Assembly: GCA_965240465.1 (NCBI GenBank)
Contig: OZ251219.1
Location: 64,001 to 128,000, forward strand
From: a bacterium
GTDB lineage: Bacteria; SAR324; JACQKK01
Length of the DNA: 64,000 nt
Direction: 5' to 3'
Part shown: positions 31,496 through 54,610 of the stretch, piece by piece
Layout of the letters: the number at the start of each line of letters is the position of its first letter
Numbering within the stretch: position 1 is the first letter of the stretch
The notes under the pieces: generated by a model
Database searches by the model: none
Told to the model about the DNA's origin: nothing
What the model saw: the letters and a program-made list of their open reading frames with translations, nothing else
Translations under genes and position numbers: made by a program

Positions 31496-31530
31496 TGTTT
31501 GTAACTGTAATATAATGTAATAAAGGCAAC

Positions 31531-32913: not shown

Positions 32914-33459
32914 TCATTTTTTGCCAGATTTTCCAGCTTTTCTCAGAATACGTTCACCCTCGTAGCTAACACCCTTACCCAGGTATGGCTCTGGTGGACG
33001 CCAAGCACGAATCTGGGCTGCAAATTGCCCTATACTAACCAAATTATCTCCAGAAAGAGTAATCAGGGTGTTATTGCTTTCTGTTTTTGCCGAAACCCCT
33101 TGAGGTAATTCCAACTTAACAGGGTGAGAATATCCTAAGCTTAATTCTAGGTAATTACCACTCGCAGCCGCACGATAGCCAACTCCTATCAATTTGAGCC
33201 TGCGAGTGAACCCCTCTGAAACTCCTTTAACCATGTTAGCTAACACGGACCTAGTAGTACCCATCATAGCTCGCGCACGGAGGTTGTTTTGATAATCAGC
33301 ACGCAAATGAAGTTGTTGATCTAGTTGCTCTACGGCAACCAAGGGATGCAAATTCATGTGCTGCTCACCCTTGGGACCTTTTACAGATACTGTCCTTCCG
33401 CCACACTCCACATCTACCCCTTCGGGAAGGGGGATGGGCTGTTTTCCTACTCGGGACAT
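32914..33459 (-). CDS. rplF: 50S ribosomal protein L6
   Basis: 'MSRVGKQPI', 'GVGYRA', 'RPPEPYLGKG'. Confidence 0.98.
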   Translation of the reverse strand: MSRVGKQPIPLPEGVDVECGGRTVSVKGPKGEQHMNLHPLVAVEQLDQQLHLRADYQNNLRARAMMGTTRSVLANMVKGVSEGFTRRLKLIGVGYRAAASGNYLELSLGYSHPVKLELPQGVSAKTESNNTLITLSGDNLVSIGQFAAQIRAWRPPEPYLGKGVSYEGERILRKAGKSGKK

Positions 33460-33545
33460 GTTGTTTTGCTCAAAATATTGGTGCCTTAAATAAATTCTCT
33501 TAAAAAATTTACAGATTCAATCAGCTGTCTAGATACTGGAACAAT

Positions 33546-33947
33546 CTACCAAAATTCGCATAGGATTTCTCCACCCATTTTTTGAAAACGGCATTCGGCA
33601 TCTGTAAGTAAGCCTTTGGAAGTAGTGACAATGGCAATTCCTTGCCCATTGAAAACTAAGGGCATATGCTGAGCACCATGATACTTACGCAAACCAGGTT
33701 TGCTGACACGCTTCAAGCCCCGAATCACACTTTCACCAGCTGAGGTATACTTAAGGTTCAATTGAATTAAAGGGTGCTGGCGTCCATCTTTAGTAAGCTT
33801 CCAGCTATTGATGAATCCTTCGGTTTCCAGCACGCATGCTATTTGTTTTTTCATGCCAGAAAGAGGTGCTTCTACTCGCTTTTGTTCACGCATTATCGCA
33901 TTACGAATGCGAGTAAGAAAATCAGCGATGGGGTCATTCATGGACAT
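33546..33947 (-). CDS. rpsH: 30S ribosomal protein S8
   Basis: 'DPIADFLTRIRNA', 'RVSKPGLR', 'TSKG'. Confidence 0.98.
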   Translation of the reverse strand: MSMNDPIADFLTRIRNAIMREQKRVEAPLSGMKKQIACVLETEGFINSWKLTKDGRQHPLIQLNLKYTSAGESVIRGLKRVSKPGLRKYHGAQHMPLVFNGQGIAIVTTSKGLLTDAECRFQKMGGEILCEFW

Positions 33948-34010
33948 AGGATTATTCTTGTTAGAAAAATAAATCGGAATAAAATATTATTTTAAGAAAT
34001 ATGAAAACAA

Positions 34011-34196
34011 TTACCAGCTTGATTTTGTGATACCCGGTAGCCGTCCTTGAAGAGCCAATTTACGGAAACAAAGCCGACAAACTCCGAATTTCCTCATAAA
34101 GCTACGGGCTCGACCACATTGTCCACAGCGATTATAGGCACGGGAACTAAACTTTGCAGGGCGGCGGGCTTTAGCGATAAGACTCTTTTTTGCCAT
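34011..34196 (-). CDS. rpsN: 30S ribosomal protein S14, short Zn-binding type
   Basis: 61 aa, '[21 protein letters not shown]'. Confidence 0.97.
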
Positions 34197-34296
34197 AAAA
34201 ATTTCCTTAATAATATGCAGTGATGATCCACAGAATTTTGCAAAATAAACCAGACTAAAATTGCTTATAATTTGTCAAAGGTCAAAATATAAGAGA

Positions 34297-34866
34297 CTAC
34301 TGCCTACGAAAGGGAAGTCCCAATAATTCCAGCAATCTGAGGCCTTCCTGGTTGGTAAGGGCAGTGGTATGAAAAGTAATGTTCATGCCACGTATGCCTT
34401 CAATATCATCAAAATCTAGTTCAGGGAATATCAATTGTTCTTTCAAACCGATAGTGTAATTTCCATTGCCATCAAAACTTTTGCGAGGGACGCCTCTAAA
34501 ATCTCTTACTTGAGGCAAAGCAATGGTTAACAGCTTATCAAGAAAGTACCACATGCGTTCTCGCCTTAAAGTGACCATCATGCCGATGGGCATGCCTGTT
34601 CTAATCTTGAAAGATGCAATGGATTTTTTGGCACGGGTTAGCACCGGTTTTTGCCCCGCAATTCGCGTCAGTTCTTTTTGCACGTGATCCAGAACTTTGG
34701 CATTGTGGGACGCCTCACCAGCACCCACATTGAGGGTAACTTTCACCACGGCTGGAGTTTGGCTGGGGTTGTCATAATCAAATTCTTTTACCATAGCTGG
34801 AAATACCTGCTTGAGATATTTCTCAGCTAACCTAGGTTTATTAATTTTTCTGGAAGCAACTGCCAT
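34297..34866 (-). CDS. rplE: 50S ribosomal protein L5
   Basis: 'IAGQKPV', 'RDFRG', 'FDGNGNY', 'EQLIFPE'. Confidence 0.98.
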
Positions 34867-34904
34867 GGACGAAATAAGAAAATAAAGAAAGTTAATAAAA
34901 ATAC

Positions 34905-35162
34905 TTAATTTTTTAACAACACCTTAACATTTGAAATATGTACGGGCGATTCTATAGGGAAAATGCCCCCTTTTTCTCCTTGACTGCGAGGTTTACTGTG
35001 TCGCTTACAAAGGTTGATACCCTCTATGATGACGGTGTGTTGCCTTACATTAATGCGTTGGACCTTACCTGTCTTCCCCTTGTCCTTGCCAGTGATGACT
35101 TGGACTTCATCGCCAATGCGAAAGGGTCTTTTACTCAGCGGAGGTTGTTTGGTAATAGGCAT
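34905..35162 (-). CDS. rplX: 50S ribosomal protein L24 (short, 85 aa)
   Basis: KOW motif '[18 protein letters not shown]', 'ESPVHISNV'. Confidence 0.96.
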
Positions 35163-35244
35163 TAGAACAAAGGGCGATAATAAGGTTGAGCAACTTAGAT
35201 AAAACTTTGTTAAGCAAAAAATCCATTATCAGTGGAATTAGACA

Positions 35245-35613
35245 CTAAATAACTTCTGGTGCTAGGGATACTATTTTCATAAAGCGCTTAGCTCTCAATT
35301 CCCGGGCTACAGGACCAAAAATACGGGTACCAATGGGCTCTCGCTTGGGATCAATCAGCACAGCAGCATTCTCATCAAATTTAATGTAAGAGCCATCCTG
35401 TCGTCCTACTTCTTTTGCCGTGCGTACAACTACCGCACGTACCACCGAACCCGTTTTGATGCGGCTATTAGGTACAGCCTCGCGTACAGAAGCTACTACT
35501 ACATCGCCCAAGAAAGCGTATCTTCTTTTTGAACCACCCAGCACCTTTATGCACATCAGCAGGGTAGCACCAGTGTTATCAGCAACTTTCAGACGGGACT
35601 GTACTTGTATCAT
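35245..35613 (-). CDS. rplN: 50S ribosomal protein L14
   Basis: 'VADNTGA', '[12 protein letters not shown]', 'KIVSLAPEV'. Confidence 0.99.
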
Positions 35614-35616
35614 TGA

Positions 35617-35922
35617 TTATCCTGTTGGCTGAATATCTTTAGATTTTTGGGTAGAAATGAGCACCTTGATAAGTCGCCAGCGTTTGGTACGACTCAGAGA
35701 ACGACATTCCATAATGCTGACAGTATCACCCACTTGGCACTCATTATTTTCATCGTGGGCGTGATAGCGTTTGCTACGGCGGATAGTCTTTTTATAAAGA
35801 GGATGAACGGTTATTCTTTCCACCCGTACCACAATAGATTTATCCATGCTGTTGCTGACAACGGTGCCTCGCCTGGTTTTTCGCGTCAGGCGTTCTGTAG
35901 CATTACTTTTTATTTGAGACAT
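35617..35922 (-). CDS. rpsQ: 30S ribosomal protein S17
   Basis: '[14 protein letters not shown]', 'HPLYKK', 'AHDENN'. Confidence 0.97.
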
Positions 35923-36115
35923 CTTTGATTTCTTGTTCTCTTATCAGGGTTTTTATACGGGCGATGCTACGACGTAACTTAGGGATCTGGCTAGTATCGG
36001 TTTGCTGCCCTACAGACTTGCTACAACATGCCTGAAATAGTTGTTTTTCACTTTTATCCAGCAAAGATTTGATATCTGAAATGGACATATCCCTCAATTT
36101 TCCAATTTTTTCCAT
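35903..36115 (-). CDS. rpmC: 50S ribosomal protein L29
   Basis: Position and '[10 protein letters not shown]'. Confidence 0.92.
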
Positions 36116-36137
36116 GAACTATCCATTCTAGGTTACG

Positions 36138-36545
36138 CTAAACCCGGCTGAGCACATTACAAGCAAATGGTAATTTATAAGAAGCAGCCCGCAAAGCAGC
36201 CACAGCAATTGATTTTTCCACACCGTCCATTTCAAACAACACCCGACCCGGCTTTATTTTTGCCGACCAGTGATCAACAGCACCCTTACCGCTTCCCATA
36301 CGAACTTCTGCAGGGCGTTGGGTAATGGGCTTGTCGGGGAAAATGGTAATCCAAATTTTACCCTTTCTTTTTATCTGCCGTGCCAAAGTGCGTCGTACTG
36401 CTTCTATTTGTCTCGCAGTCATCATGCCAGATTGGGCTGCTTGCAACCCATAAGCCCCGAAGTACAACTTGTTGGCTCGCTGGGCTTTCCCGCGCAGGCG
36501 ACCCTTCATTTGTTTTCTAAATTTGGTGCGTTTAGGCATTAACAT
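36138..36545 (-). CDS. rplP: 50S ribosomal protein L16 (ATG at 36545)
   Basis: '[12 protein letters not shown]', 'EVRMGSGKG', 'YKLP'. Confidence 0.98.
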
Positions 36546-36555
36546 AACAGATTCA

Positions 36556-37242
36556 TCAACTAGTCTTGTTATCGGCAGCAGGATCACCAGGACGACGGCG
36601 GAAGGCGGCACGCGGCTGGTTATGTTCTTCTCCCTTGTAAATCCACACTTTTACCCCTATGATGCCGAAAGTGGTGGCCGCCTCTGCGGTGCCATAATCA
36701 ATGTTGATCCGCAAGGTATGTAGAGGAATACGCCCTTCACGCACCCACTCGCACCGAGACATCTCTGCTCCATTTAAGCGGCCCGACACCATTATTTTGC
36801 ACCCCTGTACGTTCAAACGCATGGTGTTGGCCAAAGTTCTGCGAATAGCCCGACGAAATGTAACTCGCCTTTCCAGCTGACCAGCGATATTCTCTGCTAC
36901 CAGTTGAGCGTCAATATCCGGGCGACGCACTTCCTTGATATTCACCTTTACCCGACATTTAGCCAACTGGGTTAGCTGGAGCTTGAGAACATCGGCAGAT
37001 TCGCCCTTGCGACCAATGATAATCCCTGGCCGAGAGGCATGAATATTAACAGTCATCTGCTGAGAGGTGTGTTCGGTCTCTACCCGAGAAATACCGGCAT
37101 TCTTATGGTGTTTGCGAATGTATTTCTCTATACCAAGATCAATATTAAGTAACCTGGCGTAATCACTTTCAGCAAACCACTTACTCTGCCACTGTTTTGT
37201 AAGGCTTAGACGCATGCCTATAGGATGTACTTTTTGACCCAT
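36556..37242 (-). CDS. rpsC: 30S ribosomal protein S3 (ATG at 37242)
   Basis: '[11 protein letters not shown]', '[10 protein letters not shown]', 'GRIPLHTLR'. Confidence 0.98.
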
Positions 37243-37244
37243 AA

Positions 37245-37748
37245 CTAACCCACCTTCAGGGTTACATGGCAGGAACGCTTCCGGATTGGAGCCGATCTTC
37301 CATATGCTCTGGCTCGCCATCGCTTTAGTGTGCGGCCCTGATTGACGAAAATACACTTTATTTTTAACTGTTCCAATTTTACACTTCCACCGCTACTTCG
37401 TTCTGCATTGGAAATAGCTGACTTCAAAAGATTTTTCACTGCTGGGCTTGATCCTTTTTTCACATTATCCAAAATTCCCAGTGCCTGTACCACATTCTGA
37501 TTGCGAATCAACCCTGCAACCAATCGCACCTTGCGAGGAGAAGTGTGGAAATTACGCAATACTGCCCGATACAAAACACCAGTAGAAGTTTCGGCAACCT
37601 GAGGTATTTGCTCAGAAATGGTTTTTTTATTGGCTTTTCTATCCGCGTCTCTTTGCTCCACGGATGCTTTTACAACGGCCTTATTGAGAGGATCTTTCGG
37701 GTTCGCCTTAGTACCGTCTGATCTGATATGAGGGGGTTTTGCATTCAT
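37245..37748 (-). CDS. rplV: 50S ribosomal protein L22 with N-terminal extension
   Basis: 'SPRKVRLVAGLIR', 'LKSAISNA', 'RARAYGR'. Confidence 0.95.
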   Translation of the reverse strand: MNAKPPHIRSDGTKANPKDPLNKAVVKASVEQRDADRKANKKTISEQIPQVAETSTGVLYRAVLRNFHTSPRKVRLVAGLIRNQNVVQALGILDNVKKGSSPAVKNLLKSAISNAERSSGGSVKLEQLKIKCIFVNQGRTLKRWRARAYGRSAPIRKRSCHVTLKVG

Positions 37749-37762
37749 GGCAATTTTTAGGT

Positions 37763-38047
37763 TTAGCGCCTCTGGGCACGGGCATCTGATTTAGTGGTAT
37801 GGCCACGATAAGTACGAGTAGGAGCAAATTCCCCTAGCTTATGACCAACCATATTCTCGGTAACAGACACCGGTATAAATTTGCGTCCATCATAGACAGC
37901 TAAATTCAAGCCCACAAAATCAGGCAACACCATGGAACGTCTGGACCAAGTACGAATCAAGCGTCTTTCATTGGTTTCCTTAGCACGCAAAGCCTTGGCC
38001 AACAAGTGTTGGTCTACAAAAGGTCCTTTTTTTAATGATCTTGGCAT
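37763..38047 (-). CDS. rpsS: 30S ribosomal protein S19 (ATG at 38047)
   Basis: '[12 protein letters not shown]', 'TWSRRS', '[11 protein letters not shown]'. Confidence 0.99.
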
Positions 38048-38372
38048 AATAAAAAAAAAAATCACTAATTAATAATCATTTGAACTCAAAACAAAAAATG
38101 CGTGCCAGATCGTCTATTCAAAATACCTGCTAGTGCAACTCTGGGATCACATCCCCTAAGTGTAGACCATAACTCACCTCGTTTGGCAACAAAAAACGTT
38201 AGAGATTATGTATTATCCCGCAAGAATAAATTGACTTTTTGTATTGTAGGTTATATCGGTGGTAGGGAAGGATGCTTGTTTTGGAAGGGTGTCAATTTGA
38301 GATTAGATAAAAATTGGCAATAAAGAAGCATAGCAAGAAAGTTTAACGGACGCTTAACAAGGAAGTACAGCA

Positions 38373-41162: not shown

Positions 41163-42164
41163 ATGCTAGTGAAGTATCCTGTAAATGGAAAGATAAAAAT
41201 TATGATTATGTCTTGGCACCTGCGTTTGTGTTTGAGGTTGGGGTTAAGGTTGGGCATATGGGGAATTTTGCTGAGCGTGTTTGCTGTAATGTTGTGGCAG
41301 CTGCTGTGGATATGGCTGGCAGTTCCGTTGGTAGGGGGGACGCTATTGGTTGGTTTATGGGAGGCATGGCGGTTGATGCATCAGCATGGGAGTGGTAGGT
41401 TGAAGGGGTGGGTGTATGGAGCATTTAAGGGAGCGGCAATGAGTGGGCTGGCGTTTTATGCTTCGTTTTTGATGTCGCGACCAGAGTGGTTCTGGCCTTT
41501 GCTGTTGGCATTGGTTGCTGGGAGTTGTGGAGGGTATCGAAAATATCGGCTGAGCGGGTTAAAACATTATTTGCTTAGCTGGGGTCTGGGTGTTGTAGTT
41601 GGTGGAGCGTGGGCTTGGGTATTACTGAGCTTGTTACCATGGTTGGTATTTGTATTAGGGTTGTGGAGTGTGGGATGGCTATGGTGGTGGATTTTGTTAC
41701 CCAAGCTATTAGCTCGTAGCTGGGTGCGAGTACTAAATGGACCCTTAGAGGACATGTGTTATCCGCTGCGGGGCGAGCTAATAAAGATTGGTGCGGATGC
41801 AGATAACCACGTGGTGTTGGAGAATTACGCTAGAGTTTACCCTTTTCATGGCTGTGTATCTAGTTCTAAAGGATGCTATAGGCTGATAGGTGACCAACAG
41901 AGGAGCGAAGTATTGGTTAATTATCGTCAGTTTGCACAGCATAAATTAGAGAGTGGAGATTTACTTAAGTTGGGTGACGCACTGCTTCAAGTGGGAGGCA
42001 AGCTACCAACAGAAGATTCTGTCCCGGCAAGACAGAAAAATCGGGGGAGATATGGAAGGAACAGAAGTTCCCGTTATAGAGGTAGGCACAGCAGGGGACA
42101 AGATGCTGCTAGAGAGTACGGCAGAGGACGTCGGACACAAGGGTTTAGAAGCAGTAATAAGTAA
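41163..42164 (+). CDS. Membrane protein with C-terminal FHA-like domain and Arg/Gly-rich tail
   Basis: About 6 TM segments, then 'VLNGPLE..YPL..IKIG..H..VLVN...LESGDLLKLG'. Confidence 0.7.
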   Translation: MLVKYPVNGKIKIMIMSWHLRLCLRLGLRLGIWGILLSVFAVMLWQLLWIWLAVPLVGGTLLVGLWEAWRLMHQHGSGRLKGWVYGAFKGAAMSGLAFYASFLMSRPEWFWPLLLALVAGSCGGYRKYRLSGLKHYLLSWGLGVVVGGAWAWVLLSLLPWLVFVLGLWSVGWLWWWILLPKLLARSWVRVLNGPLEDMCYPLRGELIKIGADADNHVVLENYARVYPFHGCVSSSKGCYRLIGDQQRSEVLVNYRQFAQHKLESGDLLKLGDALLQVGGKLPTEDSVPARQKNRGRYGRNRSSRYRGRHSRGQDAAREYGRGRRTQGFRSSNK

Positions 42165-42209
42165 ATTGCTGAGGTCAGTTATGACACCTTTTTTATATTA
42201 AGTTAGGTT

Positions 42210-43259
42210 TTGGTGATGAATGTTTTGTTAATAAGAATAATAAATATAGCTGCATATTTGAAGATTATTAATTGGAGGATTACAGGGATATTTGCAGTAA
42301 CAATGTTGCTCCCTAAGCAGGTGATGGCAACAGACAGTTTTAGTGCATCAATTTCAATGGAAGTAGTCATAATACTCCTATCTTTGCTGGGGCTTGTTAT
42401 ATGCTGGATATGCTTTCGGCAAGGATGGAACATAAAAAATATGCAAAGTCCTGGGTTGGAGGTTATTTCTCCTACTGAGAAGCGTCATTTTTTGTCGCTT
42501 CCGCAATTACCATGTAACTTGGAATTTATTTCCCAGCGGTTGAAATATTCGCAACTGCGTATTTCTGGGGGCTTAAATCGGGTACTGATGAAGAAGGACC
42601 CACGGGGAAATGTGATGTTGGAAGACAAAAACAATCGCAGTGTTATGTTGCACAATCGCCGTCGACTGGAACACATAAAATTGCTGATATATGATGTGCT
42701 GGATTTTGGTGAAATTACTCTAATGTATCGTGATTCCAATCTTGAAGCACATTCTAAGGAGGCATCAAGCCTGATATCAAAATTTATGGCAATGCTCAGA
42801 TCAAAGTCTACTGTGTACAAGGCTCCCAACCAATGGTCTGTCAGTAAAAAGTCTATCGCAGAGCCAACAGCTACAGGAATATCTTTTTGTCAACCGTTGA
42901 TGCCTATGCCAAAGCAAGCACCTTCGTTTATTTCTACGAGGAATCGAGAACAAGTATTCTTCATTACCAAAAATGTGGTGTTTATTGGTAGCTCTTCTAT
43001 CAACGATTTAGTATTGAAATCCCCAGATGTAGCTCTCAAGCATGCCAAACTGGAGCGTGTCAGTGACCGTTACAAGTTGGTACAACTGAGCCCTCGTGCT
43101 CACATTACCATCAACAGACGACGGGTGGAGCAAGGATATCTTAGGGCCGGAGACGAAGTGTATTTTGAAGGAACAGGCTTTATTTTTCGCTCCGAAACCA
43201 GTACTCAGGATCCAAAAGAAAAAAATACAAGTGATAAAGGCCATGTTCTAGCATCGTAG
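42210..43259 (+). CDS. Membrane-anchored protein with tandem FHA-like domains (start uncertain)
   Basis: TM helix; 'HNRRRLEHIKLLIYDVLDFGE' and 'VFIGSS..NDLVL..H..INRRRVEQGYLRAGDEVYF'. Confidence 0.7.
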   Translation: MVMNVLLIRIINIAAYLKIINWRITGIFAVTMLLPKQVMATDSFSASISMEVVIILLSLLGLVICWICFRQGWNIKNMQSPGLEVISPTEKRHFLSLPQLPCNLEFISQRLKYSQLRISGGLNRVLMKKDPRGNVMLEDKNNRSVMLHNRRRLEHIKLLIYDVLDFGEITLMYRDSNLEAHSKEASSLISKFMAMLRSKSTVYKAPNQWSVSKKSIAEPTATGISFCQPLMPMPKQAPSFISTRNREQVFFITKNVVFIGSSSINDLVLKSPDVALKHAKLERVSDRYKLVQLSPRAHITINRRRVEQGYLRAGDEVYFEGTGFIFRSETSTQDPKEKNTSDKGHVLAS

Positions 43260-43434
43260 GTATTGACACCTCGGTAATCACAGTCGTAGATGGCTTCTAG
43301 TAGTGTTCGGTTCAGCTAAAAACTTACCACCCGTAGCACAGTTCCATAAGAATCACTGGCTGGATATTGTTGCCAATTCCCACTGAAAACCATAATCTGC
43401 TCGTTTTTGAGCGGAGATCGTGCCTGTGGCTGGG

Positions 43435-43908
43435 TTATTTGCTGTCTTGCTCTTCTAAATCTTGAACACCTTCCAGTTGTTCTTCATAAAATGAGCGTCC
43501 CATGAGTCTTTCCTGTTGTTGCTGAAATTCCAAGCTATAGAGAGTGAGCGGCATCAGTAGCAACCTACGAGGATTGATAACCTCATCAGTTCCTTCACAA
43601 AGGCCATAGGTACCTTGAGCCATACGATCAAATGCTTCTTCAATATGTTGCAAGCGGCGCAAATGGCGTTGATGCATAATCAAGTTCATTTCTCTATCAC
43701 GTTCCTCAGAAGCATGGTCTAGGGCATCTCCGACCTCCTTGCCTACGTTTTCGGGAAACTCGCTGTGCAGATGATTATTTATCACCTGTTCGCTGTCAGC
43801 ACGCATCTTTTCAAGCTTGGCAATAATTTCACGTAACACATCCGCATCTAAGTGCTGGAGGTTATATACAGGGGGAGTATTGATCCTGGTGGCTTTCTGC
43901 TTGTCCAT
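43435..43908 (-). CDS. dksA: DksA/TraR family RNA polymerase-binding protein, single-Cys type
   Basis: Coiled-coil tip 'DALDHA' (DxxDxA); 'GTYGLCEGTDEVINPRRL..P.TLYSLE'. Confidence 0.85.
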   Translation of the reverse strand: MDKQKATRINTPPVYNLQHLDADVLREIIAKLEKMRADSEQVINNHLHSEFPENVGKEVGDALDHASEERDREMNLIMHQRHLRRLQHIEEAFDRMAQGTYGLCEGTDEVINPRRLLLMPLTLYSLEFQQQQERLMGRSFYEEQLEGVQDLEEQDSK

Positions 43909-44258
43909 ATAATCTGCTTCCTTTGCGTTAGGTAATCAAAAAATCACTGAAAAAATAAATGCTGGTAATGTATTTTTATCAATACTATCAAATCACGCTT
44001 CCAAACGGTGCCAATGTAGCCTACAGACAGGCACCATCGGTCCCAATCCACAACGGAATCCTACCATATTCTTCCTTGATAAGATAGGTCTTTATTTATA
44101 TCTGTATTAAAGATACTCCTAATCCCCCAGCTACATAGATTATTTTAGACGGCAGAGTTTCAACGCAGAAAATGCAACACCTTAAAAACATCGGTAGTCT
44201 CTAGAATCAGTATGATGAATAATAAAAATTGATGAGATGCTTTCCAAAAACCGGCAAT

Positions 44259-46364
44259 CTAACCAAAGAATACCTGAAACAACCCCTCTCCAAAACTATG
44301 AGCAAAAACCAGACTAACAATGGCCTGTAGCTTTATAAGGATATTCAAAGAAGGTCCGGAGGTATCTTTGAGTGGATCACCAACTGTATCTCCAATGACA
44401 GCAGCCGCATGAGCATCGGATCCTTTGCCACCCAAATGTCCTTGCTCAATTAATTTTTTAGCATTGTCCCACGCACCACCCGCATTAACTGATGAGGTAG
44501 CTAGTACCACCCCTGAGGCAAGGCTACCTATCAACAAACCTGCCAGAGGCTCCACTCCAAATAAAAAACCTACCGCCAGAGGAACCAGCAATACTTGGAT
44601 GGCAGGGACAATCATATTTCTTAAGGCTGATTTAGTGGCTATATCCACGCAACGGCGGTAGTTGGGAAGAACGGTGGAAGTTTCTTCTTCTTCCCCATCA
44701 TCATCTTCTTCTGTTGATACATTTTTAAGACCAGGGATGGTAGCAAACTGGCGGCGTGATTCGTTAATAAGTTCTTTGGCAGTACGTCCTACAGCTCTGA
44801 GCATCATGGAAGTAAAGGAGAATGGTAGCATGGCACCGATCACCAGCAGGGAAATGACGCTTGGTTTTAGAATATCAAGGGTATCAATACCTGAGCGTAC
44901 CAAGAAGGCAAATATCAGTGCTAAAGAAGTCAGTGCGGCAGATCCGATGGCAAATCCTTTACCTACCGCGGCAGTGGTATTACCCGCGGCATCAAGGGCA
45001 TCGGTGCGGCGGCGTACGACACTGTCCATGCTCGCCATTTGAGCAATGCCTCCAGCATTATCCGCAACGGGACCAAAAGCATCAATGGTGAGGGTCATGA
45101 TAATTGCCCCCAGCATGCCGATAGCCGACAGTGCTATTCCGTACATTCCTGCCGCAGAAAAACCTATGAAAACTGTGATACCCAACAGGATCACGGGAAT
45201 TACGCTACTACGATGACCGAGTGCCATACCAATCACGATGTTTGTAGCGGCACCAGTACGGGAAGCAGAAGCTATTTCACGAACCGGACGTTTGTGGGAG
45301 GAGGTGTAAAATTCAGTTACGATGCCAATCAGCAAACCTGATAACAATCCGCTTAGCACCGATAAATAAACTCCCATTCGTGAGATATTTTTCACCCCTA
45401 TGACAAATTCTTCTGGCAAAGAAAAAAGAGTTACTATCAAAGTCACAAAGGCCATCAAGACAGTTGAGGCAAACAAAGAGAATTTCAAGGCAGATTCTGC
45501 TCTGCGTGCTGTGTTAGCACGTACAAAAAAAGCAACTACCAAGGCCACGGGCACCCCAAAAGCAGTGAGAGTAATGGGGTAAAGCAGTGCTAATTCGGTA
45601 GAAAAAATGGTAGCTCCAATTACTAAGGCAGCACAGGTGCTCTCTGTGATAGAACCAAATAAATCGGCACCCATGCCAGCTACATCACCTACGTTATCAC
45701 CCACATTATCTGCAATTACAGCGGGATTGCGAGGATCATCTTCAGGGATGTTCTGTTCAATTTTGCCTACTAAATCGGCACTCATATCGGCAGCTTTGGT
45801 AAAAATCCCTCCGCCTACACGGGCAAACAACGCTATGCTGGAGCCTCCTAAAGCAAATCCTGCTATAGCTTCCATCAAGTGCCTAGTATCTTTGATGAAT
45901 GGTTTATATAAAAGGTACATGATTATCAGGCCCAGCAGGGCAATGCCCACCAGACCAAAACCCATTACTGCACCAGATTGGAATGCTCTACGAAAAGCTA
46001 ATCTCAGCGAACGCCTAGCAGCAACAGCAGTCCGAATATTGCCCTCGGTAGCAGCTCGCATACCCAACCATCCCGCCCCAATAGAGCAAAATGCCCCTAC
46101 AGCAAATGAAAATGCAGAGCCAAAATCTACCACCAGAAACACTAGTAAGCCAAACCCTATGATAAATACCAGCATGTGACGAAATTCTCGTTTTAGAAAT
46201 GCTTGTGATCCTAAAGAAATGGCTCCAGAAATTTGAACCATTCGTTCTGCCTGAGATTTGGGGATGCCTTTGGTTGGATCTTGCTTTATGACCTGCCTCA
46301 GAAAAACAAAGGCCGTCAGCAGTGACAATAATCCCAAGATAACAATAGTTGTTTCAACAGACAT
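44259..46364 (-). CDS. hppA: Membrane-integral ion-pumping pyrophosphatase
   Basis: '[27 protein letters not shown]', 'DNVGDNVGD', 'GGAWDNAKK', '[14 protein letters not shown]'. Confidence 0.96.
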
Positions 46365-46605
46365 GGAGTTTCCTTTTGGTTAGTAAGATAATAATAAAAA
46401 TCGCTGGACAAAAATACTCATATTTTGAAAATATTAAAAAGCCGTAGATATAGCCAGCTACGAGAATCATGCCATGAAAAATTATACGGCTTATGCGGAA
46501 AAAATAAAAACATTTTTTGAAAATCAACTTAACTTGGATATTATATGGGCAATAGTGTTTAGTGTCTAGTTTCTTTTTCGGTGACTTTCTAATATTTAGT
46601 GAGTA

Positions 46606-47370
46606 TTGGGTATGAAAATTGATTTATCAAAGTGTGTGGTTATGTGGCAGCAGGTAAAGTTGAAACTTATAGTATTGGTTAACATGGGAGTACTTTACCT
46701 ATTGGCAGTGACAATAGCAGGGACGATAGGGACTACAGGATGCTCTACAGCACGGAAACGGTATAAGGCAAATACTGTACGCAGTTTGTTGAAGTATCGT
46801 GATAATGAGACAGCTAGGTTATTTAAGCGTACTCATCGGAGTGGAAATTTGTACATTAATTTTCGTCCTGCTCTAGAATTAGATGCGGTTTTTATGGATA
46901 GACGACTACGTGAGGTGACTGTAAAGCGTTATGTGGATAATTTTTTGTTGTCTAAGAAGCAGAGTGACGTGTTGCATGCAGAACAAGTAAAGGCCTTTGA
47001 TAATATCATTGAGATGTTGGTGTTTGTGTACGAAGGAAACAACAAGCGTAGTAATCTGACCAATGATGATTCTCCATGGCGAATTCTTCTGAGAGATGAT
47101 GACGGACGACTGCACCCTCCCACGGAGATAAAGCAGTTGAAAAAAAATAGTTCACAATATCAGTTACTAGAGAAAAATTTTACGGTTTTAGACCGTTGGA
47201 CGCAGGTGTACCAAATAACATTTACCAAGTTGGCAAAGGGTGTTTTGAGCCAGCAATTGGGAGATCAGCCATTTGAGCTGATATTTACAGGCATCAAAGG
47301 CTCAGTAACGTTGAGTTGGAAAGATCTGTCCTTATTCTATCGTCTGGATGGTTCTAACTCTAAAACTTAA
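46606..47370 (+). CDS. Hypothetical lipoprotein (start probably further downstream)
   Basis: Hydrophobic stretch ending 'GTTGC' followed by soluble domain. Confidence 0.6.
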   Translation: MGMKIDLSKCVVMWQQVKLKLIVLVNMGVLYLLAVTIAGTIGTTGCSTARKRYKANTVRSLLKYRDNETARLFKRTHRSGNLYINFRPALELDAVFMDRRLREVTVKRYVDNFLLSKKQSDVLHAEQVKAFDNIIEMLVFVYEGNNKRSNLTNDDSPWRILLRDDDGRLHPPTEIKQLKKNSSQYQLLEKNFTVLDRWTQVYQITFTKLAKGVLSQQLGDQPFELIFTGIKGSVTLSWKDLSLFYRLDGSNSKT

Positions 47371-47657
47371 ACAGATGGACAATTGGAGAAAAATTACACA
47401 TCAATTTCTCGCGTGTGCTATGCTTCGTTGGTTAAGTAGAAAATTAAATTTTCTTGTATTTTTTCTTGTATATTGTATAAAAGCGTAGTACCGAGTACAG
47501 ACACTCAAGGAGTACAGATTGGTTTTCGTGTTTCTTGAGGCTATTTTTTAATGTTGTTTTTATTTGTAGGTTTTTTTGTTATCATGTAGCCTAATGGCAT
47601 GAAGCAGATGTCTGCAATATGCGTGTTCAGCAAGATTCCGTTTTGGAGTAAATAATT

Positions 47658-49508
47658 ATGGTTCGAGATACTATTACCCGTGGTCCCAATCTCATACATC
47701 CTGAGAAACCCAGTGCTGTTGGCTCGCGCAACAGTCTTAATCGGGATAATCGCAATGAATATGAGGAATCTAAGCTCCTTATTGATGAAGAAGTGGACAA
47801 GACACTCAACCACATCCACGCCAAACTTCCACCTGAGGTTTTGGAAAAATTGGACATCATGGGTAGCATCAAGTCCAAGTTACACAATTACTTCAACCAG
47901 AACTTCCAGAATATGTACAACCGCTATCTCACCACCATGGAGGATGAGCTTTCCAAAAAAGTTCGTGATTTGGTAGATAAGGAGGAATATCGTTCCCTCA
48001 ACCGTTATACTCCACGAGAAATTTCAGAAATTCTAGACAAAATAGGCGGCTTGGAGAAATTCAACACCGGTGAAATGGAAAAGTCCGTTGTCAATATTTA
48101 TGGTCACCTTCAAGGACACATCCAGCGCGGCATGTATGAACTGGAAAATGAAACTAATGCCTTGTTGCGACAAAAATCAGATGTGGGTGCTTTCGTCCGT
48201 GGTGAAAATGCTTATGCCATCGCCAAGTGTTCTTTCAAGAACAATTTCTACAGGCCGAAAAATGTGATGGATGTGAAACTGGCTATCAACATTCTGGATT
48301 CAGAGCTGATTAGCCCTATTTACCACTATCAAATTCCTACTGAAACCATCATCAAGGATGTCATTAGCAAGCACGTCCATGAACTAATTGAACGCGAAGT
48401 GGAAGAGCTCAACACTACCCTCATAGATGAAGGGAAAGAGGAACTTACCACCACCGAGTCCATGTTTGAAAAAATAAAGGCTCTTGACAATTACCTGGAT
48501 GATGACACAGAAAATGAGCAGTCTAAGCGGTACCAGTTTGTCGCTAAGCGTTTCATGGATCGTATTGAAGGCCTGCAGGCTGAGGTAGATCCTGACGATT
48601 ATGATCCTCTTAATGTACGTGAAAGTATTCAGGGTGTAATCGATAACGAGAACATTCGTAACCGAGGGTTCAATACCGCTATTAATAACCTCACTGCCGT
48701 TTTGGACACATCTCGCATGGGTTACCAACACGTAGAAAACTTCAAAAATGCCCGTCAGGCTGTTGTTCGTGAGTACGAAGATACTGATGTTACCAATCTT
48801 CCTGATGAGCGCTACGCTGTTCGCCTTTCATACTATGATGCTGAGCAAGTACGTTCCATGCGTAATGCGTACGATGTCCAAATGCAAGAGATGCAAGCCG
48901 AGATTGTTAAAGTCTATGATGTGGTAAATATTCTATATGAAGACTACAAAGGTCGCACAGGCAAAAGAGACTACGATGATATCGCTCGCCATTATGCAGA
49001 GAAAAATAAAAAGACTGGCGGAATTTTAAGGTGGTTCTCTACTGAGCTGGAAGAAGAAGAGGTTACTCCTAAGCTATGGAATGAAATAACTTTCGTTCCA
49101 CCAAAAAGTACCATCGTTGAGGAAAGTAATCGCACTGATGTCCATCTGATTGAAGAACTCAGAAAGCGTATCTTTGAAAGTCGTAAGAAAGTGGCAGGTA
49201 TATTTGGTAATCACTATCCTGCTGATCGTAATATTGTTGATACCCGTATCAGCTTTATGGAAAGCCAGTTCGAAGAGTTTGAGTCTAGGGTGAACCCTTA
49301 TCACATCCTTCCTGGTCTGGTACTGGAAATTGATATTACCTCAGTTAAGAGAAAACGCACTACCATGCTATCCATGGCTAATGTACTTAATGAGTTCCTT
49401 TATTCAGTCTCTAAAGGTTTCCAAGATACCGCTTTTGCTGAATTCTCCCGCAGACGCTCTACTGTTCGTGAGGATATTGCTCAGACCTTTGATAGAAGTA
49501 CAGAGTAA
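47658..49508 (+). CDS. cfpA: Cytoplasmic filament protein CfpA homologue
   Basis: Recalled Treponema CfpA blocks: 'HPEKPSAVGSRNSL', 'NYFNQN.QNM.NRY', 'KFNTGE.EKSVVN.YGHLQGHIQRG', 'RQK.DVGAF.RGENAY', 'INILDSELISPI', 'IRNRGFNTA', 'FSRRRSTVR'; GGAG RBS. Confidence 0.85.
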   Translation: MVRDTITRGPNLIHPEKPSAVGSRNSLNRDNRNEYEESKLLIDEEVDKTLNHIHAKLPPEVLEKLDIMGSIKSKLHNYFNQNFQNMYNRYLTTMEDELSKKVRDLVDKEEYRSLNRYTPREISEILDKIGGLEKFNTGEMEKSVVNIYGHLQGHIQRGMYELENETNALLRQKSDVGAFVRGENAYAIAKCSFKNNFYRPKNVMDVKLAINILDSELISPIYHYQIPTETIIKDVISKHVHELIEREVEELNTTLIDEGKEELTTTESMFEKIKALDNYLDDDTENEQSKRYQFVAKRFMDRIEGLQAEVDPDDYDPLNVRESIQGVIDNENIRNRGFNTAINNLTAVLDTSRMGYQHVENFKNARQAVVREYEDTDVTNLPDERYAVRLSYYDAEQVRSMRNAYDVQMQEMQAEIVKVYDVVNILYEDYKGRTGKRDYDDIARHYAEKNKKTGGILRWFSTELEEEEVTPKLWNEITFVPPKSTIVEESNRTDVHLIEELRKRIFESRKKVAGIFGNHYPADRNIVDTRISFMESQFEEFESRVNPYHILPGLVLEIDITSVKRKRTTMLSMANVLNEFLYSVSKGFQDTAFAEFSRRRSTVREDIAQTFDRSTE

Positions 49509-49534
49509 TCGAATTTCTTACATTATCTCAATAC

Positions 49535-49573
49535 AAAAATCCCGCCTTCTTAAACAGAAGGCGGGATTTTTTT
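49535..49573. terminator. Bidirectional intrinsic terminator between cfpA and gnd
   Basis: aaaaatcccgccttct-taaac-agaaggcgggattttt: perfect stem with A/T tracts on both sides. Confidence 0.9.
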
Positions 49574-49681
49574 GGTGTCGCATCATTCCAGTGATAAAAT
49601 ATATATACGGGAAGGGCATCAGAAACACTGCCGCATTACGTCAGCAAATTTTCATTAAATTTTCATTTGCATAGTGGGTAA

Positions 49682-51112
49682 CTAATTATTCCATTTAGTA
49701 TGAAAATTCCCAGTTTTATCTAATCTTTGGTAAGTATGAGCACCAAATAAGTCGCGCTGGGCTTGGATGATGTAAGCCGGAAGACGTTTGGCATGCAGAG
49801 CGTCGTAGTAGGAGAGTGCAGAAAATATGGCCGCCAGTGGGTTACCTTTTTGTAGGGCAACCGCAACAAAATTACGCCAAGGGGGTTGCCTTTTTTTAAC
49901 TTCTTTGTAGAAATAAGCATCCATCAGCAAATTTTCCAGTTGCGGTTGTTGAGAAAAAGCATGCTGAATACTATCCAGAAGTCGTGCTCGGATAATGCAA
50001 CCTGCCGTCCAAATACCTGCAATCTTTGATAGAGGAAGTTTCCACCCAAATTCCTTAGAGGCCATGTGCAATAATGACATTCCCTGAGCATAACAGCATA
50101 CTTTAGAACAAAATAGGGCTTCTTGGGCTTGCTTAATAAGAGTGTCATCGGTAATGACATCGGTCTCGTCAGCTGTTTTTCTTACAGTTTTTGCATTAAG
50201 TAACTGGGAGGCTCTTTGTCTCAGATCAAATTGAGCACTCATCAAACGTGAATCTACCGCCGCAGCAATGGTGGGAACACATGCTCCTCTGGCAAGAGCA
50301 TCCTTCACCGTCCAGATGCCTGTACCTTTCATAGGTGCAATGTCCTTTATCATTTCTACTAGCAGGCGATCCTTATCACAATTGTCTGGTTGACGTAGCA
50401 CTCGCGCTGTGATTTCAACCAAAAATGATTCCAATTGGCCTTTATTCCAATCTTCAAATGTATCAGCCAACCGAGCGGGGCCTTGCGTGTCAATTAACAC
50501 ATCGCAAATTTCTGCAATTAACTGCATATCCGCATATTCAATGCCATTATGAACCATTTTTACATAATGCCCGGCTCCACCAGGCCCCATGTATTCTACA
50601 CAAGCACCATGGCTTCCCACAGCTGCAATGCATTCTAGTAACGGTGCCAATTCTTGATACGCGGTTTTGTCTCCGCCTGGCATCAGGCTAGGGCCTTTGA
50701 GAGCTCCTTCTTCACCTCCGCTCACCCCACACCCAATAAAGCGCAATCCCTTGGATATCATTCTTTGTTCACGGTTGTTGGTATCTACATAAAAAGAATT
50801 TCCACATTCTATAATCACATCATCCTTATCCAGACGTTGGCTGAGATCTTCTAACACTGCTTCAGTAGCTTGACCTGCAGGCACCAAAACAAAAATTTTC
50901 CGCGGTCTACTAAGCTTCTTCAGTAGACTATTGTAATCTTTGGCAGTATCCAAAAGGTTGTTGCTGTTAGCATAGCGGTGAGCAAATGAGTCCACCGTAG
51001 CAACAGAACGAGAAATTCCTACCCCTGATATTCCATTGTTGGCAAAGTTACGAAGTAAATTCGCACCCATTACCCCCAAACCAACCATCCCTATTTGATA
51101 TGGCTCACTCAT
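49682..51112 (-). CDS. gnd: 6-phosphogluconate dehydrogenase, decarboxylating (ATG at 51112)
   Basis: 'GLGVMG', 'GVSGGEEGA', 'GHYVKMVHNGIEY', 'QAQRDLFGAHTY'. Confidence 0.97.
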   Translation of the reverse strand: MSEPYQIGMVGLGVMGANLLRNFANNGISGVGISRSVATVDSFAHRYANSNNLLDTAKDYNSLLKKLSRPRKIFVLVPAGQATEAVLEDLSQRLDKDDVIIECGNSFYVDTNNREQRMISKGLRFIGCGVSGGEEGALKGPSLMPGGDKTAYQELAPLLECIAAVGSHGACVEYMGPGGAGHYVKMVHNGIEYADMQLIAEICDVLIDTQGPARLADTFEDWNKGQLESFLVEITARVLRQPDNCDKDRLLVEMIKDIAPMKGTGIWTVKDALARGACVPTIAAAVDSRLMSAQFDLRQRASQLLNAKTVRKTADETDVITDDTLIKQAQEALFCSKVCCYAQGMSLLHMASKEFGWKLPLSKIAGIWTAGCIIRARLLDSIQHAFSQQPQLENLLMDAYFYKEVKKRQPPWRNFVAVALQKGNPLAAIFSALSYYDALHAKRLPAYIIQAQRDLFGAHTYQRLDKTGNFHTKWNN

Positions 51113-51169
51113 GTTTTCAGTGTCATTTGTTGATTTTTTAGGAACAGTTCTTGAGTTCAAGGACAAAAA

Positions 51170-51253
51170 TGCCGAGGGCGGGGGTCGAACCCGCACTCTC
51201 GTGAGAGAACTGGATTTTGAGCCCAGCGCGTCTGCCAGTTTCGCCACCTCGGC
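51170..51253 (-). tRNA. tRNA-Leu(CAA)
   Basis: GCCGAGG..CTGGG-CT-CAA-AA-TCCAG, long variable arm, GGTTCGA, ..CCTCGGC-A; no encoded CCA. Confidence 0.96.
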
Positions 51254-51255
51254 CT

Positions 51256-51900
51256 TTAAGCAACACGAGCTTTAGGCTTGGTAAGGGTAGAGGTGTGCTT
51301 ATCTGTTGTCAAGCTTGAGAGTGGCTTTCTAAAAAATAGATTGTCAAAGCCATGACGCCCCAGGGTGTCTAGGACAGCTACTGCGGTTTTGATAGAGTCT
51401 CGGTTGACCAAAGGCACGCTTAAATGAGCTTGTTGATATTGGGGCTGACGTTCTTCAAACAAGCAGGTGATATAATCCCGCCATTCTTCATTGGTCTGTT
51501 GTTTGTTGTTAATCAGGGGACGGTGGCTGTTGCGTTTTAAGCGAGTAAAAAGGGTGTTGAGGTCTGCTTCCAAATATACGACTGTTCCTGCTTTCCGCAG
51601 TATCTCCATTCCGCATGGGTTGATGGGCATGCCACCACCAGTAGCTACCACATGTTTTTCAAGATACAGAAAACGATTCATCATTTTAAGTTCTATTTTA
51701 CGGAAAAATGCTTCTCCATGAGTAAGGAATATATCGGCTATGGACATGTTGAGGGTGTCCTCGATCAGTTGGTCTGTGTCTATAAAGTGATATTTAAGCT
51801 GGCGGGATATATATTTTCCCACAGTGCTTTTCCCTGAAGTCATAAATCCAGTTATCAAGATATTACTGGATTTCGTATTAATGTAGCTCAACTGTGTCAT
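51256..51900 (-). CDS. aroK: Shikimate kinase
   Basis: 'GFMTSGKSTVG', 'DTD', 'GEAFFR', 'ATGGG', 'RPL'. Confidence 0.93.
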   Translation of the reverse strand: MTQLSYINTKSSNILITGFMTSGKSTVGKYISRQLKYHFIDTDQLIEDTLNMSIADIFLTHGEAFFRKIELKMMNRFLYLEKHVVATGGGMPINPCGMEILRKAGTVVYLEADLNTLFTRLKRNSHRPLINNKQQTNEEWRDYITCLFEERQPQYQQAHLSVPLVNRDSIKTAVAVLDTLGRHGFDNLFFRKPLSSLTTDKHTSTLTKPKARVA

Positions 51901-53096
51901 GGTGCACTATGTAGCATCGAAGATTGTGAGTGTCTGGGATGAGTATTTTTATTGCTTAGTAATGGTGGATGCCCGGTGGTTTGGTAAGGAGACTCAATCC
52001 ATCCGCCCCCCAGCAAGTGATGGCGATCATAGAATACTACTGCTTGTCCTGGAGTGATAGCCCTGACTGGATCATGGAAGCGTACTTTTACTCGGCTGTG
52101 AGGTTGAGGAATAACAAGTGCTGGTTGCGGTTTGTGAGAATAACGTACCTTGGCTTCCACGGTAAAAGGATATCTAGGAGGTTCACAAGAAACCCAATTT
52201 ACTCGTTTAACGGATAAGCTTTTTGAGAACAAGGCTTCTTCTGCTCCCAGTACTACTTCTTGGGTATGTGGTTTAATATCTACCACAAACATGGGACCGT
52301 TGCTATTTATTCCCAGGTGCCGTCTTTGTCCGATAGTGAAATAGGCAATGCCAGGGTGCATGCCAAGGAATGACCCTTCCATGTCCACAAGAGCACCAGG
52401 CATGCTGGGGAGCGATTCTTTTTTGAGGAAACTACGATAATCTTTTGAGATGAAACATATTTCTTGGCTTTCAGGCTTGTCCCATGTTTTAATTTTAAGG
52501 CGGTGAGCGATGTCTCTTACCGTGGACTTACTAATTTCTGCCAGGGGGAAGAGCAGCCAAGGTAGCTCTTTCCTTAGGGTAGTGAAGAGGAAATAAGTTT
52601 GGTCCTTATGGGTATCGTAGGGACGAGAGAGTTTCCAACCGCTGGATATATGTTCCAGACGGGCATAATGCCCAGTAGCCAGGTAAGAACATCCGAATTG
52701 ACGAGCCTGAGATAATAGCAACCCGTGTTTGATGGAGTCATTGCACATCACGCAAGGATTGGGAGTCAACCCATGTTGATAATCACTAATAAAATTATCA
52801 ATTACTTGCTCACGGAAAGATTTTATATGGTTAACAACATAAAATGGGATTCCCAGCTGGGAACAGACTCTGCGAGCATCCAGGGAGTCATCCACAGAAC
52901 AGCATTTTTTGTTGCTCTTTTCAGATTCTGGAATGTCGTGCAATTTCATGTGAATGCCGATTACATCCCAGCCTTGTTCCACCAACAAGGCTGCCGCCAC
53001 CGAAGAATCCACTCCTCCACTCATGGCTACCGCCACACGTCCTGAGGATTTATCAATATCGGTAGCAGGAGAAACAACCATGGTTTTCAGTAACAC
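51897..53096 (-). CDS. mnmA: tRNA-specific 2-thiouridylase
   Basis: 'AMSGGVDSSV', 'TPNPCVMCN', 'ATGHYA', 'KDQTYFL', 'ESQEICF', 'TPGQ'. Confidence 0.97.
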   Translation of the reverse strand: MLLKTMVVSPATDIDKSSGRVAVAMSGGVDSSVAAALLVEQGWDVIGIHMKLHDIPESEKSNKKCCSVDDSLDARRVCSQLGIPFYVVNHIKSFREQVIDNFISDYQHGLTPNPCVMCNDSIKHGLLLSQARQFGCSYLATGHYARLEHISSGWKLSRPYDTHKDQTYFLFTTLRKELPWLLFPLAEISKSTVRDIAHRLKIKTWDKPESQEICFISKDYRSFLKKESLPSMPGALVDMEGSFLGMHPGIAYFTIGQRRHLGINSNGPMFVVDIKPHTQEVVLGAEEALFSKSLSVKRVNWVSCEPPRYPFTVEAKVRYSHKPQPALVIPQPHSRVKVRFHDPVRAITPGQAVVFYDRHHLLGGGWIESPYQTTGHPPLLSNKNTHPRHSQSSMLHSAP

Positions 53097-54511: not shown

Positions 54512-54610
54512 GGAGATGGATGAGTCACTGGTGGGCTCCCCGGGCTTCAAACCCGTGTGCGAGATGCTAACCCCGTCTTGGGTGGGTTCGATTCCCACAC
54601 ATCTCCGCCA
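54512..54610 (+). tRNA. selC: tRNA-Sec(UCA)
   Basis: GGAGATG..CATCTCC-G-CCA; anticodon arm CGGG-CT-TCA-AA-CCCG; long variable arm; GTGGG-TTCGATT-CCCAC; 99 nt; G73. Confidence 0.95.

Follow-up and report, generated by a model that had tools for sequence, protein, structure and literature searches.

CfpA is the building block of the cytoplasmic filament ribbon in Treponema; T. pallidum TP0748 and the CfpA proteins of T. denticola and T. phagedenis are presumably the treponemal counterparts of the protein considered here, and a T. denticola cfpA mutant reportedly shows defects in division and in the chromosome. The protein has long been regarded as a peculiarity of helical, endoflagellate spirochete cells, and its function has been unclear. 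Here we describe a cfpA gene, cfpA1, in a 64,000-nucleotide stretch of DNA (the window) from a bacterium of the SAR324 phylum (assembly GCA_965240465.1, contig OZ251219.1, positions 64,001 to 128,000), and we report that three old cfpA paralogs are kept in most families of that phylum other than f2, a family of the host's own order. In both spirochetes and SAR324 genomes, cfpA also occurs in a three-gene cassette with a gene (u177/u109) whose product ends in a small conserved domain, u109, and a gene for an enzyme resembling pyruvate phosphate dikinase (PPDK).

One published paper describes CfpA as "found exclusively in spirochaetes" (PMC2776988); a 2019 paper groups it with intermediate filament (IF)-like proteins (PMC6599971), and according to a 2026 taxonomic paper the filaments run parallel to the periplasmic flagella, just beneath the cytoplasmic membrane (PMC13398306). 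A literature search found no paper linking CfpA with SAR324, the listed papers on CfpA filaments being, by title and abstract, treponeme or cytoskeleton studies, and a narrower search yielding none on non-spirochetes; a search on SAR324 and the cytoskeleton, judged from its listings, found nothing relevant. Database annotation precedes us, since NCBI names several relatives "cytoplasmic filament protein CfpA" under the labels SAR324 cluster and Deltaproteobacteria bacterium. The basic fact is less new for this reason, the NCBI pipeline already applying the CfpA name in SAR324 metagenome-assembled genomes (MAGs); new are the count of genomes across the phylum, the conservation of the triplication, the cassette that both phyla share and that a cfpA pair flanks in SAR324, the missing C-terminal tail, and the retention of the gene in small genomes in which no flagellar export gene was found. 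Some older records of CfpA homologs (P0175, P0179, and P0229, from SAR324, Lambdaproteobacteria, or Proteobacteria MAGs) are evidently misannotated as "cytochrome C oxidase subunit II."

A preliminary description of the window had recognized CfpA, and database comparison confirms the identification. The NCBIfam model NF040882 (cfpA_ASD) matches CfpA1 with 877.5 bits (cut-off 500), residues 6–611 aligning to profile positions 2–603 of 605, and the protein is 53–64% identical to proteins of Treponema- and Spirochaetota-labeled MAGs. An identical protein (P0156) carries a precomputed PF27473.1 assignment, which is also found on 120 of the 120 relatives listed from a collection of 5.8 billion proteins. 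The family is small, with 212 matches at E ≤ 1e-3 among 1.84 billion 50%-identity representatives. Judged by its sequence, CfpA1 is a genuine full-length member. Other searches with the protein added nothing: a local copy of Pfam-A that lacks PF27473 gave no significant match (best, DUF5872, E 0.043), a PDB sequence search gave 0 matches at E ≤ 1, and the ESM Atlas returned nothing usable.

With Treponema CfpA the protein shares homology over the full length (about 605 profile positions, 53–58% identity to Treponema-labeled sequences), an acidic composition, a core of similar length, and a gene that stands alone and is apparently well expressed. It differs in its SAR324 host, in being one of three paralogs where spirochetes mostly have one, in lacking a basic tail, and in the persistence of the gene in genomes without a detected FlhA. 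The preliminary description had called the product a 616-residue acidic, helical protein; the length and acidity are borne out (72 kDa, pI 5.24, 110 Asp plus Glu versus 86 Lys plus Arg), and an AlphaFold2 model (50-sequence alignment; pLDDT 75.8, pTM 0.59) is mostly helical, yet has six beta strands. Helices of up to 60 residues are interleaved with strands at 188–213, 358–393, and 553–563, and the modeled protein appears unlike a single coiled-coil rod, although the confidence of the model is too low to support a mechanism. Crescentin, FilP, and Scc, the IF-like proteins with which reviews group CfpA (PMC6599971), are likewise acidic, largely helical, and without a nucleotide-binding domain, but they show no sequence relation to CfpA1, and the strands of its model, at moderate confidence, would set it apart from one coiled-coil rod.

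Distribution and Phylogeny of CfpA in the SAR324 Phylum

The host belongs to a GTDB phylum of 88 species genomes that is separate from the larger Spirochaetota sample (at least 401 genomes), and its own family includes genomes labeled SAR324 cluster, Candidatus Lambdaproteobacteria, or Deltaproteobacteria. Its genome is a single contig of 1,599,138 bases (completeness 83.6, contamination 0.4), and the core genes in the window are ordinary bacterial ones (ribosomal proteins, EF-Tu, EF-G, ftsAZ, secY, lpxD, mla, and mfd). The host is a bacterium of the SAR324 phylum and not a spirochete, as the preliminary description had supposed from the surrounding genes.

CfpA was counted as the number of genomes with a match above the NF040882 cut-off, in a scan that covered the two phyla and 14 control genomes. 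It is present in 41 of the 88 SAR324-phylum genomes, nearly always in three copies (15 of 35 when high-quality genomes are considered), and in 147 of 401 genomes of the Spirochaetota sample, mostly in one copy; the controls gave 0/14. By family, the gene is found in all 18 genomes of the host's own family (f1), in 18 of 19 in f7, in 2/2 in f3, and in the single genomes of f4 and f6; it was found in 0/45 genomes of f2 and 0/1 of f5. Family f2 seems to have lost all its copies, as far as the genome sequences indicate.

In the host genome (G000) the window copy, CfpA1, stands alone and scores 877 bits; the other two (CfpA2 and CfpA3) score 686 bits (C1:392350-394236) and 570 bits (C1:398296-400068), and the three proteins are mutually 40–47% identical. 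CfpA1 is by these scores the paralog closest to spirochete CfpA, and with 71–87% identity within its family it is the most conserved of the three. One genome of the Spirochaetota sample (G097) also carries three copies (C97:23675-25486, C69:22694-24508, and C102:30441-32243). Two of these are tail-less and group with the divergent proteins P0014 and P0032, the NCBI-labeled CfpA of "Spirochaetota bacterium."

CfpA trees were built with IQ-TREE (LG+C20, quick search) after thinning the spirochete rows at 78% identity (23 of 84) and the SAR324 rows at 88% (38 of 42); a second tree used 25 SAR324 rows and dropped long-branched unnamed proteins. CfpA1 shares a family tree with Treponema-labeled rows, and the SAR324 clade is placed either among the spirochetes or next to them. 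In the first tree (78 rows) the 38 SAR324 rows all fall in a single clade (support 100) that also takes in six unnamed proteins, three of which are identical or nearly identical to SAR324-phylum rows. The second tree has 51 rows, and its root was set by three unnamed metagenome proteins, the most distant family members of full length (27–28% identical); it recovers the clade with support 99. The clade contains at least three paralog groups common to f1, f3, f4, f6, and f7; the host's CfpA2 groups with the best copies of f3, f4, f6, and f7 (support 99), and CfpA1 falls in the solo-copy group of its family (support 100). Because the paralog groups are shared among several families, the triplication predates the families.

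The preliminary description had contrasted nesting among the spirochetes, as a sign of transfer, with a sister position, as a sign of ancient inheritance. A single SAR324 clade is recovered, which may be nested in the spirochetes or be their sister. It is quite possible that nothing passed from spirochetes to SAR324 and that the two groups inherited CfpA as sisters from an older holder, or that it originated in SAR324 before the triplication and then moved to a spirochete ancestor. Spirochete monophyly is not rejected on the CfpA tree (approximately unbiased [AU] test, delta lnL 7.44, p 0.086). The tree of the PPDK-like enzyme (32 rows, rooted on three canonical PPDKs) shows the two groups as reciprocal sister clades, SAR324 with support 85 (ten rows) and spirochetes with 86 (19 rows), and CfpA reaches five of the seven SAR324-phylum families, compared with only 147 of the 401 Spirochaetota genomes sampled.

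Against this, the best CfpA tree places the SAR324 clade behind four spirochete nodes (support 98, 98, 100, and 99), and its root falls among short Treponema-like branches, unlike an outcome of long-branch attraction. The known diversity of the family centers in spirochetes, since its named divergent members (P0014, P0032, and P0094) are labeled Spirochaetota or Spirochaetia; in the PPDK-like tree the outgroup could draw the long SAR324 branches. The nearest neighbor of the SAR324 clade in the 51-row tree is a six-row spirochete clade (support 81, weak), and the first spirochete branch of the PPDK-like tree is G184, whose CfpA is 79–82% identical to members of that clade. The two proteins therefore attach SAR324 beside the same spirochete lineage, and only the root is doubtful. 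Forcing SAR324 together with G184 in the PPDK-like tree, a group chosen post hoc, is likewise not rejected (delta lnL 5.08, p-AU 0.061). As read from these trees, the most likely course is an old transfer of the cassette between a spirochete lineage and the SAR324 stem, followed by triplication; movement from the spirochetes into SAR324 would be the slightly favored direction.

Cassette Partners, C-Terminal Tail, and Flagella

The second and third cfpA copies of the host flank a cassette outside the window (Table 1), the locus running from cfpA3 through u177, u109, and the gene of an 867-residue PPDK-like protein to cfpA2; the cassette likewise lies between paired cfpA copies in the SAR324 loci L042, L045, and L049. 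Spirochete loci have the same three genes. The SAR324 genomes differ in that f1, f3, and f6 add a second cfpA after the PPDK-like gene and have the third elsewhere (in f1, the window copy), and in that the host's own genus has the middle gene split into u177 and u109. Beyond the host's second locus lie ORFs of 118, 672, and 285 aa without a known family, a T2SS-M-like gene, YceG, and a T2SS-F-like gene.

Of 41 Spirochaetota loci in which cfpA is complete, 35 extend 1.6 kb or more beyond it, and the u109 domain is found in 30 of these (tblastn), in one frame with the u177 part in 27 of the 30 (stop-to-stop frames of 304–399 aa). The five loci without it are Treponema-labeled, and at least one is the second copy in its genome. 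Across the SAR324 phylum, 31 of 88 genomes contain u109 (0/45 in f2); wherever both could be placed on one contig its best match is near a cfpA copy, with weaker second matches elsewhere. The host and G010, a genome of the same genus, have open frames of 111 and 117 aa, versus 263–484 aa for the full-length best matches of other genomes, and u177 and u109 lie in different frames, from which we conclude that the middle gene is split in the host's genus.

The middle protein has about 350 residues, of which the last 108 are about 60% identical across the two phyla. An alignment of 21 u109 sequences from both phyla has a mean column identity of 78% and an invariant NELFHNGNVEAWK block; the domain is more conserved than CfpA itself. 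Its AlphaFold2 model (pLDDT 78.7, pTM 0.75) consists of a strand, a helix, three strands, and two helices, in that order. A VIA-align search of 48,161 chains with this model puts HPr or NPr in each of the first five places (Z 7.0 to 5.9; rmsd 2.3–2.8 Å over 76–78 of about 85 residues), although Z below 8 can reflect a common arrangement, and the top rows in Foldseek are nearly all HPr, Crh, or NPr (E 5e-3 to 4e-2, probability 0.96–0.99). His17 of u109 is invariant and stands just before helix 20–34; by the register of the aligned ranges, it may be the equivalent of His15 of HPr.

The PPDK-like enzyme scores 404.5 bits on TIGR01828 (cut-off 843.45) and 18.7 bits on the ATP-binding domain model PF01326, under the threshold of 27. 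It can be aligned end to end with solved PPDKs and keeps the phospho-histidine motif GGySSHAP, versus GGmTSHAA in 5jvn. A second, higher-scoring gene of the PPDK family is present in all five genomes tested, above the cut-off in G081, G005, and G184 and below it, at 750–784 bits, in the host and G016. The host's second gene (C1:1245705-1247978, plus strand; 749.6 bits) matches only from profile position 106, and by these profile scores the host may lack a fully canonical PPDK.

Spirochete CfpA typically ends in a basic tail rich in Lys, Arg, Gly, and Pro, of 40–90 aa (median 56 aa in 90 rows) and ending in L-x-E-[LIV]; the tail is a feature noted in the present analysis and is not a published criterion for CfpA. 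It is absent from four of 85 distinct spirochete rows too, two of which are the extra G097 copies. An AT-hook reading of the tail was rejected, a loose regular expression matching only 28 of the 85 distinct rows.

FlhA is found in 76 of the 88 SAR324-phylum genomes. The host genome gave no match to flagellin or FlhA; MreB is present. Four other genomes (G010, G069, G070, and G071) likewise have no FlhA match, yet these and the host, of 1.6 to 2.4 Mb and four of them single contigs, carry three cfpA copies each. Because the gene persists where FlhA was not found, CfpA cannot depend on periplasmic flagella, and that it has been kept during genome reduction, in the absence of flagella, points to a core role independent of them.

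Proposed Role and Alternative Explanations

The explanation that we consider probable starts from what is shown, that CfpA1 is a member of the CfpA family and an old paralog in a SAR324 chromosome, and adds that it would form filaments, act independently of flagella, and perhaps be regulated by the cassette. CfpA1, by itself or in combination with CfpA2 and CfpA3, may polymerize into cytoplasmic filaments. These filaments would organize the cell interior, in division or nucleoid placement, as reported for Treponema, and they would work independently of flagella. The phosphoenolpyruvate (PEP)-dependent pair of an Enzyme I (EI)-like and an HPr-like protein could regulate the filament or dock on it.

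Besides the doubtful root of the trees, several points weigh against this explanation. Filament formation by CfpA1 we infer from family membership alone. Foldseek returned 0 matches to the CfpA1 model at E ≤ 1e-3, and the best hits of VIA wide (Z up to 8.0) cover partial ranges with small alpha/beta domains and helical bundles; with a model of moderate quality and no convincing solved-fold match, structure is silent on polymerization. The likeness of u109 to HPr is seen only in the predicted model: a search for PF00381 found nothing in the host genome, Pfam found nothing on u109, and a profile of the u109 alignment found no HPr among PDB sequences. Because the fold scores are below a safe level and sequence searches see nothing, we call the domain HPr-like rather than HPr. 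CfpA1 is the copy detached from the cassette, and SAR324 CfpA rows extend a median of 0 aa beyond its end, with the tail motif in 0 of 40; if the tail is needed for treponemal function, the SAR324 proteins may have different roles. CfpA may also occur in phyla beyond the two scanned. Lastly, the preliminary description had stressed that ftsAZ and two FHA genes lie within 10 kb of cfpA1. The distance stands, but the arrangement is not conserved: only the locus of the same genus (L005) also has the FHA pair, gnd, aroK, and mnmA near cfpA1, so that the closeness to ftsAZ looks incidental, and a functional link of cfpA1 with these genes was rejected.

The cassette also suggests a bolder explanation, which we think unlikely. 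CfpA would be the filament part of a mobile three-part module with an HPr-like phosphocarrier and a PPDK-derived EI-like enzyme, its assembly or anchoring controlled by the PEP and energy state of the cell; the module would have crossed between Spirochaetota and SAR324, and in SAR324 it would be three-subunit, tail-less, flagella-independent, and kept at 1.6 Mb. As in the phosphotransferase system (Enzyme I with HPr or NPr), a PEP-utilizing enzyme with a phospho-histidine motif stands beside a small domain with an HPr/NPr-like model and an invariant histidine. The cassette differs in that its enzyme is PPDK-derived and not EI, that u109 gives no PF00381 signal, that the HPr-like domain is C-terminal in a protein of about 350 aa, and that no sugar-transport components are linked to it. 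A complex prediction for CfpA1 with u109 (score 0.24, mark 0.32) speaks neither for nor against. If such a module exists, CfpA would be a general, metabolically gated bacterial cytoskeleton and not a spirochete accessory of shape or motility.

It is still less probable that CfpA1 has diverged so far that it no longer makes a ribbon of the treponeme type, serving perhaps as a soluble scaffold or in another role while the cassette-linked copies keep the ancestral function. Its detachment from the cassette, its lack of the C-terminal tail, and a model that is not a plain coiled-coil rod would fit such a change, but CfpA1 is closer to spirochete CfpA than the other paralogs (877 versus 686 and 570 bits; 53–64% identity) and more conserved within the family, and the loss of the tail is not special to it, since all three SAR324 paralog groups are without one.

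Genomic Setting and Implications

That spirochete DNA was misjoined to a SAR324 genome in assembly or binning is practically excluded: no support was found beyond a GC content around cfpA1 (0.39–0.42) slightly under the window range (0.40–0.475), and against it stand the single 1.6-Mb contig with core-gene neighbors and a contig that crosses the locus without a joint, the recurrence of the gene and its context in at least nine independent loci, and a SAR324 clade of its own, only 53–64% identical to the spirochete proteins. A Logan contig from a public run, probably the source sample itself, covers window positions 43000–53000 and shows neither a difference nor a joint. The locus DNA is present in two runs of a single sample, and the contigs of one run break at the terminator hairpin. 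Contigs bearing cfpA1 elsewhere include ones of 0.77, 0.98, and 1.7 Mb.

The order dksA-like, pyrophosphatase, unk254, cfpA1 is kept throughout the host family. Of 16 solo-copy loci in other assemblies, nine have the dksA-like and pyrophosphatase genes upstream (most also unk254), four short ones have unk254 only, one has the pyrophosphatase only, and two have no upstream flank; the locus is thus not chimeric, a concern the preliminary description had raised. The gene unk254 lies directly upstream of cfpA1 in L005, L006, L008–L011, L013, L015, and L062–L064 (31–67% identity, tblastn). Its product has no Pfam or NCBIfam match, and its N-terminus, by eye, is a possible lipoprotein signal.

Table 1. 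Coordinates of cfpA1, its signals and neighbors, and the second cfpA locus (window positions unless a contig or locus is named)
Feature	Position	Strand	Basis or remark
ftsA	38373		Within 10 kb of cfpA1
ftsZ	39639		Within 10 kb of cfpA1
Two tandem C-terminal FHA / YscD-like proteins	41163-43259 (starts 41163, 42210)	+	Directly 3' of ftsZ
DksA/TraR-like	43435..43908	-	TIGR02420, TIGR02890 weak, below cut-off; synteny in 9 loci
Membrane pyrophosphatase, V-type H(+)-translocating	44259..46364	-	TIGR01104, 807.5 bits; conserved context
unk254, upstream neighbor of cfpA1	46606..47370	+	ORF; hydrophobic N-terminus, then ..TTGC..
Intergenic region, presumed promoter and leader site	47371..47657	+	287 nt between unk254 end (47370) and cfpA1
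GGAG, Shine-Dalgarno-like	47646..47649	+	8 nt 5' of cfpA1 ATG; direct sequence reading
cfpA1 (CfpA, solo paralog)	47658..49508 incl. stop codon	+	ATG-started ORF, 616 aa; NF040882 match
Putative intrinsic terminator of cfpA1	49535..49573	+	Perfect 16-bp stem, 5-nt loop (49535-49571), T run to 49573
gnd, longest ORF	49682-51247	-	Overlaps tRNA-Leu(CAA)
tRNA-Leu(CAA)	51170-51253	-	
tRNA-Sec	54512-54610	+	Rfam RF01852, 67.5 bits
Second cfpA locus (cfpA3, u177, u109, PPDK-like 867 aa, cfpA2)	G000:C1:392350-400068 = L138 6318-14078		Outside window
u177 and u109	L138 11104-12115	-	Split ORFs in different frames; own genus

The preliminary description had also read cfpA1 as a gene transcribed alone, with a long leader and a perfect terminator. 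The terminator is as described: its stem has no mismatch and is followed by a T run, and the hairpin folds with a dG of −26.2 kcal/mol (z −6.2), equaled by 0 of 200 shuffles. It is potentially bidirectional, given its flanking A and T runs; a consensus terminator scanner missed it on the plus strand, probably because these runs pair with each other. Beyond it lies the convergent gnd gene, with no u177/u109 or PPDK-like gene there. A long leader and separate transcription are plausible from this layout. A consensus scan of positions 47200–49800 for promoters of the sigma-70 type found 0 sites versus 6.7 expected; a possible TATAAA was seen near 47480, by eye only. An alignment of the upstream regions of seven orthologous loci (mean column identity 40%) shows no conserved promoter or leader, with TTGACA common to L007, L008, and L063 only.

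Codon use was assessed with the codon adaptation index (CAI), with ten ribosomal-protein and elongation-factor genes of the window as the reference and 803 crude ORFs of at least 250 aa as the background. The index of cfpA1, 0.712, is at the 93rd percentile (median 0.679; tuf 0.730, fusA 0.735). Of the codons that the preliminary description took as marks of a highly expressed gene, enrichment is seen for TTC (65% of Phe, 96.6th percentile) and for CGT (39% of Arg, 91.8th percentile) but not for AAC (55th percentile) or ACC (65th percentile), and the percentiles of the neighbors are mixed (dksA-like 98.5, pyrophosphatase 82.6, gnd 79.1, unk254 51.4). Codon bias is weak across the host genome. 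The index, the Shine-Dalgarno sequence, and the strong terminator are hints that cfpA1 is expressed.

Elsewhere in the window, the str/S10/spc array of ribosomal-protein genes is broken between rplB (11760-12578) and rpsS (37763-38065), its segments lying at 11760-18007 and 28477-38065 on the minus strand; the rpsS-to-adk block lies upstream of the rpsG-fusA-tuf-to-rplB block, with about 10 kb of plus-strand genes (mlaE, mlaD, tatD, hemB, and others) between them. The presence of a tRNA-Sec gene indicates that the host uses selenocysteine. The true start of gnd is probably further in than that of the longest ORF, because the match to 6-phosphogluconate dehydrogenase begins at residue 50.

The CfpA system is not confined to spirochetes. 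Its conserved triplication in another phylum, including small genomes in which FlhA was not found, indicates a general cell-biological role. SAR324 genomes offer natural variants for comparison (tail-less proteins, three paralogs, and a split partner gene), and homologs now named "cytochrome C oxidase subunit II" can be corrected in the databases. The cassette common to the two phyla singles out the protein with the HPr-like end and the PPDK-like enzyme as candidate regulators or anchors of the filament.

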